Source: an uncultured Roseovarius sp. | GTDB taxonomy: Bacteria; Pseudomonadota; Alphaproteobacteria; Rhodobacterales; Rhodobacteraceae | Direction of reading: 5' to 3' | Length of the DNA stretch: 64,000 nucleotides | Assembly (NCBI GenBank): GCA_947497295.1 | Contig: CANMFU010000004.1 | Span: forward strand, 25,916 to 89,915 | Part shown: positions 1 through 6,354 of the stretch, one piece after another | Numbering within the stretch: the first letter of the stretch is position 1 | Layout of the letters: every line of letters starts with the position of its first letter | The notes under the pieces: generated by a model | Told to the model about the DNA's origin: nothing | What the model saw: the letters and a program-made list of their open reading frames with translations, nothing else | Database searches by the model: none | Translations under genes and position numbers: made by a program

Positions 1-2
1 CT

Positions 3-881
3 GTCGGAGCCATGGCACGTCTCAACATCATCGACACGATTTATCCCAATGGCGTGGCGGAAGAGCCGATCGAGTACGAAAAACGGCCCGACTGGATCCG
101 CAATTGGGAAGTCACCGGCCTCATCACCTATGAGGATAAGAACGGCGACGGACAAATCGAGTTCTATGATGACACCGAGGAAGCCTTTGCCGAAGAGGCC
201 GCAGCACGCGGTTGGAAGGGCAGCGAGCTGACGGTCAACCGTGACATTCTGGTTCTGGCCAACCCCGAGATCGCGCAACTGCCCAGCTGGGTGATCGCGC
301 TGATTGCGGCGGGCGGTCTGGCGGCGGCGCTGTCAACGGCGGCGGGTCTGCTGCTGGCCATCTCGTCGGCGATCAGTCACGATCTGATCAAGGCGACGAT
401 CAATCCGGGTATCTCTGAAAAGGGTGAACTGCTATCGGCCCGGATTTCCATGGGCGTTGCGATCGCGGTTGCGACCTATCTCGGCCTCAATCCTCCGGGC
501 TTTGCGGCGCAGACGGTGGCGCTCGCCTTTGGTATTGCGGCTGCGTCGATCTTTCCTGCGCTGATGATGGGTATCTTCTCCAAATCCATCAACGACAAGG
601 GTGCGGTCGCGGGGATGCTGACCGGTCTGATCTTCACTCTGGTCTATATCTTCATGCACAAGGGCTGGTTCTTTATCCCCGACACCAACCAGTTCCCGGA
701 TACGATTTCCGGCTCGCTGTTTGGAATCCAGTCCACGGCGATCGGTGCTGTGGGTGCTGTGCTGAACTTCCTCGTGGCCTGGCTTGTGTCGCGCAGCACT
801 GCACCGACACCCCAGCATATCCGGGATCTGGTCGAAAGCGTTCGCGTTCCGCGCGGCGCCGGTGCAGCCACCGACCATTGA
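3..881 (+). CDS. Sodium:solute symporter (ActP-like acetate/cation symporter family), C-terminal part; 5' end lies outside the window
   Basis: The frame is open from the window edge. SSS motifs include LIAAGGLAAALSTAAGLLLAISSAISHD and AFGIAAASIFPALMMGIF, with many TM helices. The C-terminus VESVRVPRGAG is typical of the family. Confidence 0.9.
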   Translation, partial: VGAMARLNIIDTIYPNGVAEEPIEYEKRPDWIRNWEVTGLITYEDKNGDGQIEFYDDTEEAFAEEAAARGWKGSELTVNRDILVLANPEIAQLPSWVIALIAAGGLAAALSTAAGLLLAISSAISHDLIKATINPGISEKGELLSARISMGVAIAVATYLGLNPPGFAAQTVALAFGIAAASIFPALMMGIFSKSINDKGAVAGMLTGLIFTLVYIFMHKGWFFIPDTNQFPDTISGSLFGIQSTAIGAVGAVLNFLVAWLVSRSTAPTPQHIRDLVESVRVPRGAGAATDH

Positions 882-888
882 CCCTGGC

Positions 889-955
889 GTCGGGCATCCC
901 CGGTGGTGCCCGACCCGAATATGCCACCTCCCTGTCCGCCTTTCGGCGGACAGGG
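889..955. terminator. Two GC-rich hairpins after the symporter (intercistronic stem-loops or terminator)
   Basis: GTCGGGCA...TGCCCGAC at 889-914 and CCCTGTCCGCC-TTTC-GGCGGACAGGG at 930-955. There is no strong U-tract. Confidence 0.5.
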
Positions 956-978
956 CACTTTCATAAGGGCCGCCAATC

Positions 979-2784
979 GTGAGTATCGCAGATTTTCTTG
1001 CCGGCGTTCATCCCTGGACCCGGCTATCGATGACGGATCTAAGCGCAGTGTCTGCAGTGATCGAACCGCACAGCATTGCTGCGGGCGCTGCAATCTACCA
1101 CGCCGGTGAGCCGCTTCAGGGACTTTACATCATTCGCTCGGGCGAGGTCGAAGTGACCGATGCGGATGGCGCCCCGCTGTCATCGCTGGGGCCTCGCAAC
1201 GTCTTTGGCGAACGCGGGCTGATGCGCGATGGAACCGCCCTGACCAATGCCCGCGCTGTCACCGCAACCGACGTGCTGGTGCTGCCTGCGGTATATTTTC
1301 GCGCCATGATCGACGACGACGCAGCCCTGCGTGACTTTTTCGCCAGATCGCGGCCGCCGCGCGCGCTTCAGCGCAGTCTGACCCAGACGCCGGTCGCCGA
1401 CTTGATGTCCAGGACTCCGAAATCGGTCAGCCCGGACACGACACTGGCCGAAGCCGCGATGATGATGCGCGATGCCCGGATATCGTCACTCATGGTGGTC
1501 GAGGATGGCGCGCTATGCGGTATTCTGACGATCCGCGATATTTCCGCCCGTGTGGTGGCCGAGCGGCTGGACCCGGGCGCGCCTGTCAGCCGGGTCATGA
1601 CCGTCGATCCCGTCACCCTGTCCCCCGATGCCATCGGCTCGGACGTGCTGCATCTGATGATGGAGCGTGGCATCGGCCATATTCCCATCGTCGGCGACGC
1701 CGGGCTGGCCGGGGTCATCACCCAGACCGACCTCACAAGGTTTCAGGCCGAAAGCTCGTCCGAGATCATCAGGGATGCCGCCCGTGCGCCGGATGCGGAC
1801 GCGCTGGCCGATATCACCCGGCGGATCCCGAAACTGCTGGCGCAGCTGGTGGGCGCCGGGCAGCGGCACGACGTGGCCACGCGCCTTGTGACCGACATTG
1901 CCGATGCCGTGACCCGCCGCCTGCTGGCCTTGGGCGAAGCGCATCTGGGCCCGGCGCCGGTTCCCTATCTGTGGCTTGCCTGTGGCAGTCAGGGCCGCCG
2001 TGAACAGACCGGCGTGTCGGATCAGGACAATGTCCTGATGCTGTCGGACGACGCCACCGCAGACCACGACACCTATTTCGGGAACCTCGCCCGTTTCGTT
2101 TCGGATGGGCTGGACCATTGCGGCTATGTCTTCTGTCCCGGCGACATGATGGCCACCAATCCGCGCTGGCGCCAGCCGGTCCGCGTCTGGCGCAGGTACT
2201 TCCAGGGCTGGATCGCGCGCCCCGACAAGGAGGCGCAGATGCTGGCCTCGGTCATGTTCGATTTGCGGCCCATCGGCGGCGACCACAGCCTTTATGCAGG
2301 ATTGCAAGCCGAAACGCTTGCGGCGGCGGCGCGAAACTCGATCTTCGTGGCGCATATGGTGGCCAATTCGCTGACCCATTCACCCCCTCTCAGCCTTTGG
2401 CGGGGGCTGTCCACCGTGCGTTCAGGCGAACACCGCGACCGCATCGACCTGAAGCTGAACGGCGTCGTCCCGATCGTCGATCTGGGGCGCATCTACGCCC
2501 TGCGCGGGCAATTGACGGCGGTAAACACAAGGGCGCGGATCGAGGCAGCGCAGACGGCGGGGATCATCTCGGCCAGCGGTGCGCGCGACCTTCTGGATGC
2601 CTATGATCTGATAGCCCAGACCAGACTGGACCATCAGGCAATTCAGGTGCGCGGCGGCGAGGCCCCCGATAACTTCATGGCGCCGGCAACCCTCAGCGAT
2701 TTCGAGCGCAGCCATCTGCGCAATGCCTTCGTGGTCGTGCGAACGATGCAATCGGCGCTGGCACAGGGCCGCGGCCTGCCATAA
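979..2784 (+). CDS. cNMP-binding + CBS pair + DUF294 nucleotidyltransferase-like + DUF294_C protein
   Basis: N-terminal cNMP-binding fold (LYIIRSGEVEV...FGERGL) and tandem CBS domains. Pol-beta-type NTase motif GSQGRREQ...SDQDN. DGLxxCGY..CPGDMMATNPRW and DLKLNG motifs are typical of DUF294. Confidence 0.9.
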   Translation: MSIADFLAGVHPWTRLSMTDLSAVSAVIEPHSIAAGAAIYHAGEPLQGLYIIRSGEVEVTDADGAPLSSLGPRNVFGERGLMRDGTALTNARAVTATDVLVLPAVYFRAMIDDDAALRDFFARSRPPRALQRSLTQTPVADLMSRTPKSVSPDTTLAEAAMMMRDARISSLMVVEDGALCGILTIRDISARVVAERLDPGAPVSRVMTVDPVTLSPDAIGSDVLHLMMERGIGHIPIVGDAGLAGVITQTDLTRFQAESSSEIIRDAARAPDADALADITRRIPKLLAQLVGAGQRHDVATRLVTDIADAVTRRLLALGEAHLGPAPVPYLWLACGSQGRREQTGVSDQDNVLMLSDDATADHDTYFGNLARFVSDGLDHCGYVFCPGDMMATNPRWRQPVRVWRRYFQGWIARPDKEAQMLASVMFDLRPIGGDHSLYAGLQAETLAAAARNSIFVAHMVANSLTHSPPLSLWRGLSTVRSGEHRDRIDLKLNGVVPIVDLGRIYALRGQLTAVNTRARIEAAQTAGIISASGARDLLDAYDLIAQTRLDHQAIQVRGGEAPDNFMAPATLSDFERSHLRNAFVVVRTMQSALAQGRGLP

Positions 2785-2814
2785 CCGCGCGTCGGCGCGC
2801 GCGAAGGAGAAGCG

Positions 2815-3333
2815 ATGTTATTCGAACTCATTGCCGTAATCGTGGCCGGTGTCGCCGGCGGGGGCGTGACGCTGATCGTGCGGCGCATCATCCCTGCCCT
2901 GCCCCGCTGGCTGGTCCCGGTGGTCGCCGGCGCGACGATGCTGGCCGTGTCGATATCGCTGGAATATTCGTGGTTCGCGCGTCATTCCGCCGCGCTGCCC
3001 GACGGCGTCGAGGTGGCGACCGTTCATGAAAACAAAGCGTTCTGGCGTCCTTGGACCTATGCGTTCCCCTATGTTGACCGGTTCATCGCCGTGGCCCAGG
3101 TTGGCGCGTTGCAAAATGAGGCAGCCAAGGATCAGAGGCTGACCAGTCTCTATATCTTTGGCCGCTGGACCCCGACGCAGCGCCTGCGGGCTGTTTTCGA
3201 TTGCGAACTGGGGCGCAGGGCCGATCTGCTGCCCGGCGTCGTTCTGGCCGAGGATGGATCCGTGCCCGAAACGGCATGGATCGACACCGGGCGCGACGAT
3301 CCTGTCACCCGCACCGCCTGCGCGGAGGCATAG
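2815..3333 (+). CDS. Hypothetical membrane-anchored protein
   Basis: RBS GAAGGA before the ATG. Two N-terminal hydrophobic segments are followed by a soluble domain. It is co-oriented and tightly packed, with a 3-bp gap to the next gene. Confidence 0.75.
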   Translation: MLFELIAVIVAGVAGGGVTLIVRRIIPALPRWLVPVVAGATMLAVSISLEYSWFARHSAALPDGVEVATVHENKAFWRPWTYAFPYVDRFIAVAQVGALQNEAAKDQRLTSLYIFGRWTPTQRLRAVFDCELGRRADLLPGVVLAEDGSVPETAWIDTGRDDPVTRTACAEA

Positions 3334-3336
3334 CAC

Positions 3337-4737
3337 GTGCGCAACAACCTTCGCCTTCGCATCCTGCTTTTCTTTGCGCTGATCGGCGCGGGCAATATCG
3401 CGGCCATCGCCGCGGGCGCCCTTCTTGCCTCGCGCCGGGCACCCGATGCGTTGCCGGCCCTGACCGTTGCCGGGCTGGTCGCAGGTTTCGGCACGATCTT
3501 GATCACCGCCCTGATATGGCTGCTGTTCGATGAACACGTGGCCCGCGCGATCAACCGTTTCGCCGCGGCGTTGCGCGCACGGGCCCATGGCGGCGTGACC
3601 ACCGATCTTGACGTCACCTGCGTGAGTCACCTGGGTGATCTGGGCCCTGCCTCGGGGGCGCTCTGCCGGGAGTTGGCCGAAATGCACGCAAGTTTCGAGT
3701 CTCGCGTGAGCAGCGCCACCAGCAAGATGGAGGAGGAAAACGCGCATCTTGCCGCGCTGCTGTCGGAAATTCCCGTCGCCGTCATGCTGGTGGACGAGGC
3801 ACATCGGATCATTCTCTATGACCGTCAATGCGTCCACGCTCTGGGTCAGGTTGCCTCGCTCGGGCTTGGCAGGTCGGTGTTTGACTACCTTGATCGGGAT
3901 GCGCTGAAACGCGCGATGGCCGATCTTGCGGCGGATGCCGGGCGTCACTTCATTGATGTCGACCTTGCGACGGCGGACGGGCAGGACACGGTCAGCACAC
4001 GGCTGCGGCCCGCCTTGCAGGGAGGTGGGTTCATGCTCTCGATGGAGATCGAAGATGACATCATGGCCGAGCGCCCGCTGGTCTTTGACTTTAGCCTGAC
4101 CGACCGGGCGATGGACCAGCACATTGCCCAGACGCCGCTTTCGGCGCTGTCCTATGTGGTGTTCGATACCGAGACCACCGGGCTTGATATCGCGCGCGAT
4201 GAAATCGTTCAGGTCGGCGCGGTCCGGGTGCTGAGCAACCGCATCGTACGGGGTGAAACATGCGACACCTTCGTCAATCCCGGTCGCCCCATCCCCGGAG
4301 ACTCGTCCCGCATCCACGGCATCACCGATGAAATGGTTGATGGTGCGCCAGACCCCGTCACCGCCCTGCGCCAGTTTCATGGCTTTGCACAGGATGCGGT
4401 GCTGGTCGCGCATAATGCGCCCTTTGACCTGGCGTTTCTGAAACGGCACGAGGCCGGGCTTGGCCTTGCCTTCGACCATCCCGTTCTGGACACGGTGCTG
4501 CTCTCGGCGGTCATCTTTGGCGAGGCCGAGACCCACACGCTGGACGCCATTGCGGACCGCCTTGATATTCACATCGACGGATCGGCGCGCCATACCGCGC
4601 TGGGGGATGCGATTGCCACAGCGCAGGTTCTGGTGCGCCTCTTGCCGATGCTGGAGGCCCACGGCATCCACACCTTTGGCGATGCGACCACGGCAATGCG
4701 CCGACATGCGCGGCTATTGCCTGACCTCAATCGATAG
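3337..4737 (+). CDS. TM-HAMP-like-PAS-like protein with C-terminal DEDDh 3'-5' exonuclease (DnaQ-like) domain
   Basis: Two TM helices, a helical linker and a PAS-like segment (LLSEIPVAVMLVD). ExoI is VVFDTETTG, ExoII is LVAHNAPFD and ExoIII is HTALGDA. Confidence 0.88.
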   Translation: MRNNLRLRILLFFALIGAGNIAAIAAGALLASRRAPDALPALTVAGLVAGFGTILITALIWLLFDEHVARAINRFAAALRARAHGGVTTDLDVTCVSHLGDLGPASGALCRELAEMHASFESRVSSATSKMEEENAHLAALLSEIPVAVMLVDEAHRIILYDRQCVHALGQVASLGLGRSVFDYLDRDALKRAMADLAADAGRHFIDVDLATADGQDTVSTRLRPALQGGGFMLSMEIEDDIMAERPLVFDFSLTDRAMDQHIAQTPLSALSYVVFDTETTGLDIARDEIVQVGAVRVLSNRIVRGETCDTFVNPGRPIPGDSSRIHGITDEMVDGAPDPVTALRQFHGFAQDAVLVAHNAPFDLAFLKRHEAGLGLAFDHPVLDTVLLSAVIFGEAETHTLDAIADRLDIHIDGSARHTALGDAIATAQVLVRLLPMLEAHGIHTFGDATTAMRRHARLLPDLNR

Positions 4738-4813
4738 AGTGATCAGCAAACCCCACTAAAGGTGTCTTTAAAAATTGGCCGGACGGGCCTGTCGCTGGTA
4801 GTTAATTGGGTTC

Positions 4814-5136
4814 TGCGATCTTGCCCCCGCTTCATCGGACACTCGGGCGGGTGCAATTTAAGCAGCGATGAACGCGCGTGGTGAGCACATCTTCAGCCCT
4901 GAATGCGGGTGGTTTTCATTGTAATTTTCGAACCATTCGGCAATCAATCCACGAACGTTGACGGCGTCTGGCAGCGGCGTGACGTTCACGTAATCCCGCT
5001 TCAGAGTGTTGACGAACGCCTCTGATATTCTGTTACTCTACCGGCTCTCACCGCGGTCAAGCATGGTTTCAAGCCGAATTGGCGGGCGAAGATGCAGGTG
5101 CCCTTGGCGATGTAGGGTGATCCATTTATCACTTAG
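4814..5136 (-). mobile_element. IS3-family (IS2-group-like) transposase C-terminal remnant with right end
   Basis: Frameshifted minus-strand translation reads SD/NGSPYIAK..FARQFGLKPC / SEAFVNTLKRDYV...WFENYNENHPHSGLKM. An IS3-type terminus (GCCCCC...CGGACAC) lies at about 4814-4843. Confidence 0.8.
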
Positions 5137-5627
5137 CACTTAACTGTAAGAGTGCGGCGGTCTTTAAAATGACTCGTCTTTAATTACGCGACTCGGTTGG
5201 TTCCAGATCTCAAATCAAATGATTTCTGTTTGGCAAGAATGGTTTCAAGATCGGGGATAACCACGCGGCAAGCAAAGCTCCCAGGCCGACTGGCTATATC
5301 AGGGCGGGCCGCTTGAGGGCTTTGCGATCCGACAAGCGGGTCAAAATCAACTGCTGAAGCCGGGTCAACTTTGAACGCTTATTGATAACTGGAGCCATGG
5401 ATCGGCGCCAAACGACATCGGTACGCGGAAGCGCATCAGCATGGATGGTTCAGGCTGCATGCAGAAACCAACGGCTGCGATTTGCGTTTCATCCGACCTC
5501 AACACTTGGCGTGCAGCGTGTAGCAGGTCGCGTCAGCAGTGCCCGAATGAAGGCAAATCGATTAGAGGTTGACACCAAATACGCCGAGCCAGGAATCACG
5601 CATGGCAAGGTATGACATTGGTATTAA

Positions 5628-5942
5628 GTGAAGGCGCGAGCCTATTTTGTCCGCAAAACCGACGAGGCGGCTGCGCGCTTGCCATGGGTCAACCAAGCGC
5701 CGCCGTTCTGGCTCCTCGAGATGAGTAAGCAATGGCGCAGTTGTTCGCCCGTCGGCCAGATCATTTTGAACCCGCACCTGATCAAGCCCCCGCGCGCTTG
5801 CATCGAATACGTCGTCCTGCACGAGATGGCCCATCTATAATATCATGATTATGGACCGGAGTTTTGGCGACTACTGGACAAATGCCTGCCGCAGTGGCGT
5901 ATTGCCAAGCGAACGCTGGATGATATGGCGAAATTTTGTTGA
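5628..5942 (+). pseudogene. M48/YgjP-like (SprT-type) zinc metallopeptidase fragment
   Basis: Reads IILNPHLIKPPRACIEYVVLHEMAHL*YHDYGPEFWRLLDKCLPQWR. The HExxH motif is followed by an in-frame TAA (5838-5840), and the N-terminal half is missing. Confidence 0.8.
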
Positions 5943-6094
5943 TTAAGTAGCGCCACACTCTTCGGCGCAGAGAACCCGTAATCTGCGCTCGCTCGCCAAG
6001 CATCACGGTTCCATTTGACATCAAGGGAATATCTGGGGGATCAAATTCGCCCCTCACAGTAGGTATTTTTTAAACAATTATTTTCAAAATCAAG

Positions 6095-6178
6095 TGGTGC
6101 GGGTGAAGGGACTCGAACCCCCACGCCAAAGGCGCCAGAACCTAAATCTGGTGCGTCTACCAGTTCCGCCACACCCGC
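6095..6178 (-). tRNA. tRNA-Leu(TAG)
   Basis: The reverse complement folds as a class II tRNA: GCGGGTG acceptor stem, anticodon arm CCAGA-TTTAGGT-TCTGG, TTCGAGT T-loop and encoded CCA. Confidence 0.97.
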
Positions 6179-6354
6179 ACTGCCCCACACGACCATCAGA
6201 CATGCGGTGCCAGCCTGTCCTAGCGCAGCCCGAGTGCCGATGCGAGAGGGAAAATGAACCCTCCCTTACTGTGCTTGCGAAAAATTGCGGCATTCATGGA
6301 ATATTGAGATATTATTACAATAACAATGAGCAGATAAGAACACGGGCATAAGCC

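Follow-up and report, generated by a model that had tools for sequence, protein, structure and literature searches.

A gene array pairing a predicted sensor nucleotidyltransferase (NTase) with a membrane-anchored, DEDDh-type exonuclease protein was analyzed at the start (positions 1-4737) of a 64,000-nucleotide stretch of DNA from an uncultured Roseovarius sp. (contig CANMFU010000004.1), hereafter the window. Among the loci compared, the invariant core of the array is the NTase-exonuclease pair, and its usual companion is a monocarboxylate solute:sodium symporter (SSS). These symporters belong to two subfamilies, which have different small membrane subunits. The fuller version of the interpretation, in which the NTase and the DEDDh protein act antagonistically as writer and eraser of a nucleotide modification and thereby control the symporter after translation, is put forward tentatively, as possible though short of probable. 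A simpler reading, in which the pair forms a regulatory module connected with monocarboxylate uptake, is considerably firmer. The main new evidence is the GlnE/DrrA-type fold predicted for the NTase, together with its motif.

Organization and conservation of the gene array

The array consists of four genes, all on the plus strand and separated by gaps of 97, 30, and 3 bp, in the order symporter (3' part), DUF294 NTase, 172-amino-acid (aa) protein, and DEDDh protein:

1-881, plus strand: large subunit of a VC_2705-family Na+/solute (monocarboxylate-type) symporter, C-terminal ~292 codons (Pfam SSF, 6.6e-15; TIGR03648)
979-2784, plus strand: sensor NTase of the DUF294/COG2905 type, 601 aa (Pfam; homologue alignment)
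2815-3333, plus strand: 172-aa protein of no known family, with a transmembrane (TM) hairpin at residues 2-59, a beta-sheet domain of ~110 aa, and a C-terminal helix (AlphaFold2 (AF2) model, predicted local distance difference test (pLDDT) 92.6)
3337-4737, plus strand: membrane-anchored sensor-hydrolase, 466 aa, with two TM segments, a HAMP-like linker, a PAS-like domain, and a DEDDh domain (Pfam; hydropathy; profile search)

The four co-oriented, tightly spaced genes and their domains had been described in the initial annotation, made from the sequence alone, and were borne out by the open reading frame (ORF) map, Pfam, and NCBIfam. This included an unknown membrane protein, for which two hydrophobic helices and no family match (Pfam, NCBIfam, PDB) were found, and a membrane sensor-like protein ending in a DEDDh domain, for which two TM segments and an intact set of catalytic residues were found. 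The SSS symporter was also correctly identified (SSF, TIGR03648), but its gene is cut by the window edge and has lost its 5' end. Despite the truncation, it passed the TIGR03648 (VC_2705 family) cutoff of 320.75 with 325.2 bits. In related loci, the full-length gene codes for 592 aa, and a DUF4212 small-subunit gene precedes it; in this contig, the DUF4212 gene and the promoter region of the array lie beyond the window edge. The G+C and third-position G+C contents are even over all four genes.

The initial annotation had named the co-occurrence of DUF294, DEDDh, and SSS/acs genes across genomes as a way to check its proposal, and such a neighborhood survey was carried out with one genome per species. 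Genes were located by tblastn in 80 alphaproteobacterial loci with DUF294 proteins 58-88% identical to that of the window, and for each gene a locus was counted only where its sequence extended far enough on the side in question. The linkage was very strong: the 172-aa gene followed the DUF294 gene in 80/80 loci, the DEDDh gene followed the 172-aa gene in 73/73, and both the DUF4212 gene and the symporter gene were found upstream in 67/67 (three seeming misses of the symporter were a distance-threshold artefact). The genes of the array were co-oriented in the surveyed loci.

The nearest relatives belong to the Rhodobacterales, with the top match in a Roseovarius metagenome-assembled genome whose DUF294 protein is 88% identical. 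The block DUF4212 - SSF - DUF294 - 172 aa - RNase_T is the same in this Roseovarius relative and in Jannaschia rubra (75%), while the genes flanking the block are wholly different between the two. The array order is therefore not due to chance, because it is kept in 80 species while the flanking genes differ. The five-gene core is also found without acs, the acetyl-CoA synthetase gene, and among unrelated flanks in Agrobacterium tumefaciens and Rhodovibrio sodomensis.

Farther upstream, an acetyl-CoA synthetase gene was found in 49/52 loci and an adenylate kinase gene in 53/59, the latter placed between the acs and symporter genes (locus L002 and most of L004-L082). The initial annotation had mentioned acs in connection with the array; no acs gene is present in the window or adjoins the cluster in the closest relative (88% identical), and the association stands for most related loci. 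The acs-adk genes upstream of the array in most Rhodobacterales loci suggest acetate as a substrate. The adenylate kinase, whose gene is absent from the window, would recycle the AMP that acetyl-CoA synthetase forms; this adenylate pool could also be sensed by the CBS pair of the NTase. Other upstream genes include a phasin gene in the closest Roseovarius relative, and an unrelated HAMP-HisKA kinase and OmpR-type regulator upstream of acs in Jannaschia.

Variant loci in more distant taxa

The scan of the genome collection gave only relatives at least 58% identical, and more distant taxa were drawn from a plasmid/chromid collection. The DUF294 homologues of these taxa were 27-41% identical to that of the window, with those of Vibrio, Photobacterium, and Halomonas at 28-33%. 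The pair was retained in several different contexts. The locus of Methylocella is arranged as DUF485 - ActP - DUF294 - short soluble exonuclease (~223 aa), and that of Microvirga has the same order preceded by acs, again with an exonuclease of ~223 aa. In two Vibrio species and one Halomonas, the DUF294 gene directly precedes that of a short exonuclease, and no symporter gene was found within 7 kb. The stop and start codons of the NTase and exonuclease genes abut or overlap in some loci.

On plasmid pPAN2 of Paracoccus pantotrophus (L091, 5436-13848), the order is MFS transporter - CBS/DUF294 - 81-aa ORF - 899-aa 'ATP-binding protein' - response regulator - 704-aa exonuclease protein. Here the DUF294 protein is without a cNMP domain, the response regulator is single-domain, and the 899-aa protein is apparently a histidine kinase, such that the operon links the NTase-exonuclease pair to a two-component system. 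On plasmid pSR-2 of Skermanella rosea (L087, 3803-10647), the order is DUF4212 - SSS - DUF294 - 172-aa homologue (33% identity, E 2e-14), with 3-hydroxybutyrate dehydrogenase and patatin-like lipase genes upstream. Together with the phasin gene of the Roseovarius relative, these upstream genes hint at a hydroxybutyrate or polyhydroxybutyrate connection in some lineages.

The DUF294 nucleotidyltransferase

Four domains were identified in the NTase, with Pfam scores of 69.8 (cNMP_binding), 96.7 (CBS), 153 (DUF294), and 149.6 (DUF294_C) bits, each above its cutoff:

1072-1317, plus strand: cyclic-nucleotide-binding-like domain, residues 32-113 (Pfam cNMP_binding, 2e-19)
1393-1746, plus strand: CBS pair, residues ~139-256 (Pfam CBS, 9.5e-28, two stretches; CBS proteins of the PDB down to 8e-15)
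1819-2229, plus strand: Pol-beta-type NTase domain, DUF294, residues 281-417 (Pfam DUF294, 5.7e-45; motif at nucleotides 1984-2028)
2341-2766, plus strand: DUF294_C helical 'substrate-binding' domain, residues 455-596 (Pfam, 6.8e-44; low-confidence model)

An NTase of this kind was reportedly predicted in 1999. The family is large, with at least 3526 homologues at E<=1e-10 among 8000 scored candidates. The NTase motif G336-S337...D348-Q-D350, along with D428, was invariant in 15 homologues, and the G336-X11-D348-X-D350 part was invariant in a 38-sequence alignment as well. The pattern G-X11-[D/E]-X-[D/E] is the catalytic signature common to GS-ATase and SidM (2025 review, PMC12409994).

Residues 271-601 were modelled with AF2 from the 38-sequence alignment, and the model was compared to the PDB by Foldseek. 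Its core, averaged in blocks of 10 residues, had pLDDT values of roughly 60-95, mostly above 80. Four significant fold matches were obtained, all to DrrA/SidM or GlnE: the AMPylation domain of DrrA/SidM bound to Rab8a (6yx5_B; E 1.9e-7, TMq 0.64), the adenylylating domain of GlnE (3k7d_B, E 2.8e-7, TMq 0.59; second chain 3k7d_A, E 7.7e-7, TMq 0.51), and the adenylyl-removing domain of GlnE (1v4a; E 4.8e-7, TMq 0.66). The next matches were aminoglycoside adenylyltransferases, about five orders of magnitude weaker (E 0.03-0.2), and the CD-NTase CdnG (E 0.76). Poly(A), CCA, TUTase, OAS, and cGAS enzymes were not among the PDB matches of the model. The structural comparison thus supports a protein-AMPylase-type enzyme over one that tails nucleic acids or synthesizes a messenger.

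A role of DUF294 as a protein nucleotidylation writer, related to GlnD/GlnE, had been proposed in the initial annotation. The motif and the fold match agree with this proposal, but membership in the GlnE/GlnD family was not found at the sequence level: there was no Pfam or NCBIfam match to these families at E<=0.01, and no PDB sequence match to GlnE or DrrA. A PDB search by sequence also yielded no solved structure for the DUF294 region.

The cNMP-like domain keeps the FGE motif. The position of the phosphate-binding arginine of CRP (R82) is variable across the family and is occupied by Leu88 in this protein, as judged by alignment to the E. coli CRP sequence and by the homologue alignment. 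Since this arginine is lacking, the ligand of the domain may be something other than cAMP or cGMP, and perhaps not a cyclic nucleotide at all.

The DEDDh protein and its 172-aa partner

The DEDDh protein combines a membrane anchor and sensor-like modules with a nuclease-type catalytic domain:

3349-3534, plus strand: TM helical hairpin, residues 5-66 (Kyte-Doolittle segments 5-32 and 38-66)
3709-4050, plus strand: PAS-like domain, residues ~125-238, below curated thresholds (Pfam PAS, E 0.01; PAS_4, E 0.12)
4156-4632, plus strand: DEDDh domain of the DnaQ/PolC-exonuclease type, residues 274-432 (Pfam RNase_T, 6.1e-35, 121.6 bits)

All five DEDDh residues (D277, E279, D364, H419, and D424) were invariant in 34 homologues, and the full-length architecture of ~470 aa was kept in more than 100 homologues (~465-475 aa). 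The outer loop between the TM helices is only ~10 aa long. When the PAS-like region was compared as a profile to the PDB, the PAS domains of VicK (0.0035) and DhaR (0.014) were matched below threshold. The nearest PDB entries of the catalytic domain were the PolC exonuclease (2p1j, 1.4e-29) and DnaQ (1e-13), whereas no match to Orn or RNase T was obtained in the PDB at E<=1e-5. The identity of a replicative DnaQ was rejected: the protein scored 100.8 bits against a cutoff of 222.7 for TIGR01406, and 103.1 against 196 for NF004316. Because it failed these equivalog cutoffs, it is not a replicative proofreader. No match to the ATase, Fic, or PP2C-like de-AMPylase folds was found in the protein by Pfam or NCBIfam. 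Judged from its sequence, the protein appears to be a signalling-type membrane sensor with a DnaQ-like hydrolase output, which would be an unusual layout for a housekeeping enzyme of DNA or RNA.

In 23 related loci, the exonuclease protein is ~690-730 aa long (for example, L018:12742-14838, L005:8222-10417, and L051:12681-14885), with an extra insert of ~230 residues between the PAS-like and DEDDh domains. The insert weakly resembles the DHp/CA core of histidine kinases (E 0.07-0.7; kinases in 6/10 matches), and the phospho-accepting histidine of its H-box is apparently replaced (FDRVRRPAANL, by eye). The resemblance suggests that the long form may have descended from a sensor kinase. The Paracoccus locus, with kinase and receiver genes between those of the NTase and the exonuclease, agrees with such an insert.

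The 172-aa protein, encoded between the two enzymes, had no match in Pfam, NCBIfam, PADLOC, or the PDB by sequence. In its AF2 model, two helices (residues 2-25 and 33-59) precede a beta domain of six strands, and a short helix forms the C-terminus; no significant fold match was found in the PDB by Foldseek. A resemblance to H. influenzae protein E (Foldseek E 0.09) was non-significant and was not taken as homology. The family includes 428 clusters at 50% identity, all with members of ~172 aa, and the named members belong to Rhodobacterales, Hyphomicrobiales, and Rhodospirillales. Cys130 (nucleotides 3202-3204), Cys169 (nucleotides 3319-3321), and several tryptophans are invariant in the family alignment, and the inter-helix loop carries three arginines. 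We infer that both termini face outward (N-out/C-out) and that the beta domain is periplasmic and disulfide-bonded.

The gene of this protein accompanies every TM-anchored exonuclease examined and is absent from five loci with a short soluble exonuclease; a homologue can also occur without the exonuclease, as in the Skermanella locus. An extracytoplasmic sensing surface, which the exonuclease protein lacks, would be supplied by the 172-aa protein. As a lead only, intramembrane-sensing kinases such as BceS, with BceAB, and LiaS, with LiaF, depend on an accessory membrane protein or transporter. They are similar to the DEDDh protein in their two TM segments, scant outer loop, and adjoining gene for a membrane protein or transporter, by which the sensor is presumably informed, and differ in having a kinase rather than a hydrolase as output.

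Published relatives of the pair

By their published description, PP_0354/PP_0353 of P. putida, PA3233/PA3232 of P. aeruginosa, and Pflu5625 of P. fluorescens, which belong to the MxtR/ErdR (CrbS/CrbR) regulon, resemble the window in that a cNMP-CBS-NTase is followed by an RNase_T-type exonuclease. The Pseudomonas pair is likewise tied to the use of acetate, pyruvate, and propionate and to an SSS symporter (PMC9927547, PMC5715377, PMC9765439, bioRxiv 10.64898/2026.09.07.749794). The window differs in its symporter, which is VC_2705/DUF4212 and not ActP/DUF485, in the 270-aa TM-HAMP-PAS front end of its exonuclease, and in the 172-aa protein gene inserted between the pair. The membrane-anchored HAMP/PAS exonuclease with its 172-aa partner is apparently an undescribed form of a known cluster.

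Regulation and phenotypes of the Pseudomonas genes have been reported. Pflu5625 (DUF294) is regulated by CrbS/R in P. fluorescens, and the ACTU inverted-repeat promoter motif of CrbS/R (MxtR/ErdR) has been defined for Gammaproteobacteria (PMC5715377). PP_0354/PP_0353 form an ErdR-dependent operon in P. putida, and in PAO1 the pair directly adjoins actP-yjcH (PMC9927547). Deletion of PP_0353 (exonuclease) phenocopies deletion of actP-I, with impaired growth on pyruvate, whereas deletion of PP_0354 (NTase) gives no pyruvate phenotype (PMC9927547). Both deletion mutants grow worse on propionate (bioRxiv 10.64898/2026.09.07.749794), on which PA3232-PA3235 are co-induced (PMC9765439).

For the symporter subfamily of the window, random barcode transposon-site sequencing (RB-TnSeq) showed that a DUF4212 and symporter pair carries lactate or D-alanine; in Shewanella amazonensis and P. 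stutzeri, a nearby gene for an RNase-T-domain protein was cofit with this transporter (bioRxiv 10.1101/072470). Its label there, 'COG2905 (RNase T domain protein)', could denote either the NTase or the exonuclease gene and is thus ambiguous, and the gene numbering fits the exonuclease (bioRxiv 10.1101/072470). These systems (Sama_1522/1523 and Psest_0346/0347) share the DUF4212 and VC_2705 (TIGR03648) transporter with the window, along with the cofit RNase-T-domain gene (bioRxiv 10.1101/072470); the substrates shown for them are D,L-lactate and D-alanine, and for most Rhodobacterales loci the upstream acs-adk genes suggest acetate.

The absence of any biochemical characterization, stated in the initial annotation, agrees with our literature search, but the cluster and the idea of nucleotidylation by DUF294 had already been published (PMC5715377; bioRxiv 10.64898/2026.09.07.749794). 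In the 2026 preprint, PP_0354 was likened to PII uridylylation (bioRxiv 10.64898/2026.09.07.749794). No proposal of the exonuclease as an eraser was found in the literature.

A proposed writer/eraser mechanism

In the proposed mechanism, the module would tune a two-subunit (DUF4212 and VC_2705-family) Na+/monocarboxylate symporter after translation. The cytoplasmic NTase would read the adenine-nucleotide or energy status through its CBS pair, and a second, probably non-canonical, ligand through its cNMP-like domain. It would then place a nucleoside monophosphate (NMP; AMP or UMP) on a protein hydroxyl, most likely of the symporter or its small subunit, such that uptake is damped. The DEDDh protein, held at the membrane by its TM hairpin and gated by its HAMP-like and PAS-like modules, would oppose the NTase, and the 172-aa co-sensor would signal to it by helix-helix contacts in the membrane. 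The most economical action of the DEDDh domain would be a two-metal hydrolysis of the target-O-P-5'-nucleoside phosphodiester. Chemically, this would be the same reaction as the release of a 3'-terminal 5'-NMP from nucleic acid, with a Tyr, Ser, or Thr oxygen in place of the ribose 3'-O leaving group. The exchange of the leaving group would be a minor change, which makes the chemistry plausible.

Several observations are consistent with such a mechanism. Loss of an eraser would lock the target off and loss of the writer would leave it on, which fits the published pyruvate phenotypes of P. putida; on propionate, taken as toxic, loss of the NTase could be harmful through unregulated uptake. A transporter is the likelier target than Acs, because growth on pyruvate should not need Acs and yet needs the exonuclease and ActP-I (PMC9927547), and because the symporter is the commonest neighbor of the pair. 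A DnaQ-like domain behind a TM-HAMP-PAS front end is more readily reconciled with a membrane protein as target than with a housekeeping role on nucleic acids.

Other points weigh against this proposal. We know of no DEDDh enzyme that cleaves protein-NMP, and by sequence the exonuclease domain is nearest to true DNA proofreading nucleases. The PAS domain is below threshold, and the HAMP-like linker after the second TM helix, without Pfam detection, was assigned from position and pattern. The NTase model is only moderate overall (mean pLDDT 66), with a poor C-terminal helical domain. In Skermanella, the 172-aa homologue is followed by the gene of a HAMP-containing chemoreceptor, and no exonuclease was found within 6 kb. 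(The N-terminal sensor of the window exonuclease protein is not shared by this chemoreceptor; BLASTP E 0.75.) The literature search found no biochemical assay of the NTase or the exonuclease for any member, with no NMP transfer, target, or hydrolysis reported. The published phenotypes are mild and would be equally explained by a need of the exonuclease for transporter expression. The known de-AMPylases have ATase, Fic (FICD), or PP2C-like folds (PMC12409994), and GlnE-type domains can remove AMP themselves, which makes a separate eraser dispensable. An eraser role for the DEDDh protein is a conjecture, and its strongest form is unlikely: that the DEDDh fold constitutes a fourth kind of protein de-nucleotidylase, a tethered, HAMP/PAS-gated enzyme with a 172-aa periplasmic co-sensor, which strips AMP or UMP from an SSS symporter subunit modified by a GlnE/DrrA-type NTase.

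Alternative explanations

The alternative that survives best, although rather doubtful, is a control at the RNA level. Here the DEDDh protein would be a true 3'-5' exoribonuclease or DNase that trims or degrades an mRNA or small RNA required to express the symporter or acetate/pyruvate-pathway genes, and the NTase would either modulate the DEDDh protein or tail the same RNA. The closeness of the domain to PolC/DnaQ exonucleases, with all DEDDh residues present, would be expected of such an enzyme, and the structured spacer 5' of the NTase gene (described below) could be its processing site. On the other hand, the predicted NTase fold matches protein AMPylases and not poly(A), CCA, or TUTase enzymes, anchoring by TM-HAMP-PAS is unusual in an RNA-processing nuclease, and the pair occurs also far from any symporter gene.

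It is improbable that the NTase alone is a reversible switch (GlnE-like) or adenylylates a small molecule (ANT-like), with the DEDDh protein in a separate job and the adjacency due to co-regulation. The model matches the N-terminal (removing) and the adding domain of GlnE equally well, ANT-type enzymes come next in the Foldseek ranking, and the single mutants of P. putida differ in phenotype (PMC9927547). However, the adjacency is kept in all 73 loci and in distant Alpha- and Gammaproteobacteria with differing flanks, with abutting or overlapping codons in some, and co-regulation by itself rarely preserves such a gene order.

Equally improbable is a nucleotide second messenger, in which the NTase would make a linear or cyclic oligonucleotide (like OAS or CD-NTase) that acts on the transporter and is degraded by the DEDDh protein. 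Messenger synthases are found among Pol-beta-fold enzymes, short oligonucleotides are substrates of DEDDh enzymes (pGpG, for example, is degraded by oligoribonuclease), and the NTase has ligand-sensing domains, but the CdnG match was not significant, OAS and cGAS were unmatched, the exonuclease is PolC/DnaQ-like with no Orn or RNase T match, and no receptor or effector gene is kept in the array, for which PADLOC gave generic domain matches only.

Comparison with known nucleotidylation systems

The writer/eraser reading finds its closest parallels in systems of reversible protein nucleotidylation. GlnE and GlnD share with the window NTase the G-X11-D-X-D motif and a Pol-beta NTase domain joined to a helical domain, and their metabolite-gated, reversible nucleotidylation is the logic proposed here. 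The window NTase differs from them in its Pfam family (DUF294), its single NTase domain, and its lack of an HD domain, an ACT domain, or a PII partner. Removal by GlnD is carried out by the HD domain, and neither GlnD nor GlnE uses a DEDDh enzyme for removal. In GlnE, AMP removal is phosphorolytic and performed by an NTase-fold domain (PMC12409994). The initial annotation had likened the control of the symporter to that of AmtB by GlnD-PII. Since there is no PII-like intermediary, GlnE acting on glutamine synthetase (GS), or SidM/SidD, is a closer analogy.

In Legionella, the gene of the ATase-fold AMPylase SidM (DrrA), the best Foldseek match of the NTase model (6yx5_B), adjoins that of a two-metal hydrolase, SidD. 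SidD removes AMP, and the gene adjacency was a clue to its function (PMC12409994). SidD is a precedent for the logic, with a two-metal hydrolase gene beside the writer, and not for the fold (PMC12409994). SidD is PP2C-like and not DEDDh, and SidM and SidD are secreted and act on a host GTPase, as opposed to being housekeeping transporter regulators. Regarding the catalytic domain itself, DnaQ and PolC share all five DEDDh residues with the window protein (1e-13 and 1.4e-29, respectively). The latter differs from DnaQ in failing the equivalog models, in having no polymerase or theta/alpha-binding context, in its membrane anchor and sensor modules, and in the constant position of its gene after that of the NTase.

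The DUF294-exonuclease pair is widespread, and in Pseudomonas it is part of the acetate/pyruvate/propionate regulon that governs short-chain fatty-acid use. If it were a true writer/eraser pair, bacteria would possess a reversible nucleotidylation switch on monocarboxylate uptake, which would represent a new eraser fold for protein AMPylation and the first transporter control by nucleotidylation, and the puzzling published mutant phenotypes would be explained. If the exonuclease acts on RNA instead, it would be an unusual membrane-anchored, signal-gated RNase.

The intergenic spacer and the remainder of the window

The spacer between the symporter and NTase genes is predicted to be highly structured:

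882-978, plus strand: structured spacer with two GC-rich hairpins at about 889-913 and 930-955 (minimum free energy -51.5 kcal/mol)

The fold (-51.5 kcal/mol) had a z-score of -4.5, and 0/200 shuffles were equally stable. A perfect 11-bp stem was found at 930-955 (CCCTGTCCGCC-TTTC-GGCGGACAGGG). Perfect GC-rich hairpins of at least 7 bp occur in the same spacer in 47/81 related loci, with differing sequences and with T-runs after some. The spacer may be an intercistronic attenuator or terminator-like element that lowers the dose of the regulatory genes. A terminator scan found no terminator-like sites in the intergenic spacers of the array, no Rfam families were found in the region, and a sigma-70 promoter scan of the region gave a site count not above that of shuffled sequence. 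The sequencing runs that contain this sequence are of metagenome DNA only, with no RNA-seq run among them.

An antisense ORF at 2818-4707 (629 aa) was rejected as a high-GC artefact, as all homology support is on the plus strand. Anti-phage defence (CBASS, Pycsar, and others) was also rejected, with only generic domain matches by PADLOC (the DEDDh domain, and the cNMP-like region against PycC at 1e-4).

Synteny with the 88% identical Roseovarius relative stops directly 3' of the exonuclease gene. The following stretch, 4738-6180, has a lower G+C content (about 0.53) and no intact gene. It includes a C-terminal fragment of an IS3-type transposase at 4858-4989 on the minus strand and a fragment at 5628-5840 on the plus strand that ends in the zinc-hydrolase motif HEMAHL (both identified by eye and unscored), and it is closed by a tRNA-Leu at 6095-6178 on the minus strand. 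This stretch is read as a decayed mobile-element insertion at the tRNA. The remainder of the window, 6974-64000, is ordinary chromosomal housekeeping sequence from which glnD and glnE are absent. Its genes include those for NAD(P)HX dehydratase, glnB-glnA, adenylosuccinate lyase, aconitase, SecDF, and cytochrome b, along with a formate-dehydrogenase-like NuoF/NuoG-type pair, a fused TRAP DctM-DUF3394 transporter, and a class-III aminotransferase.

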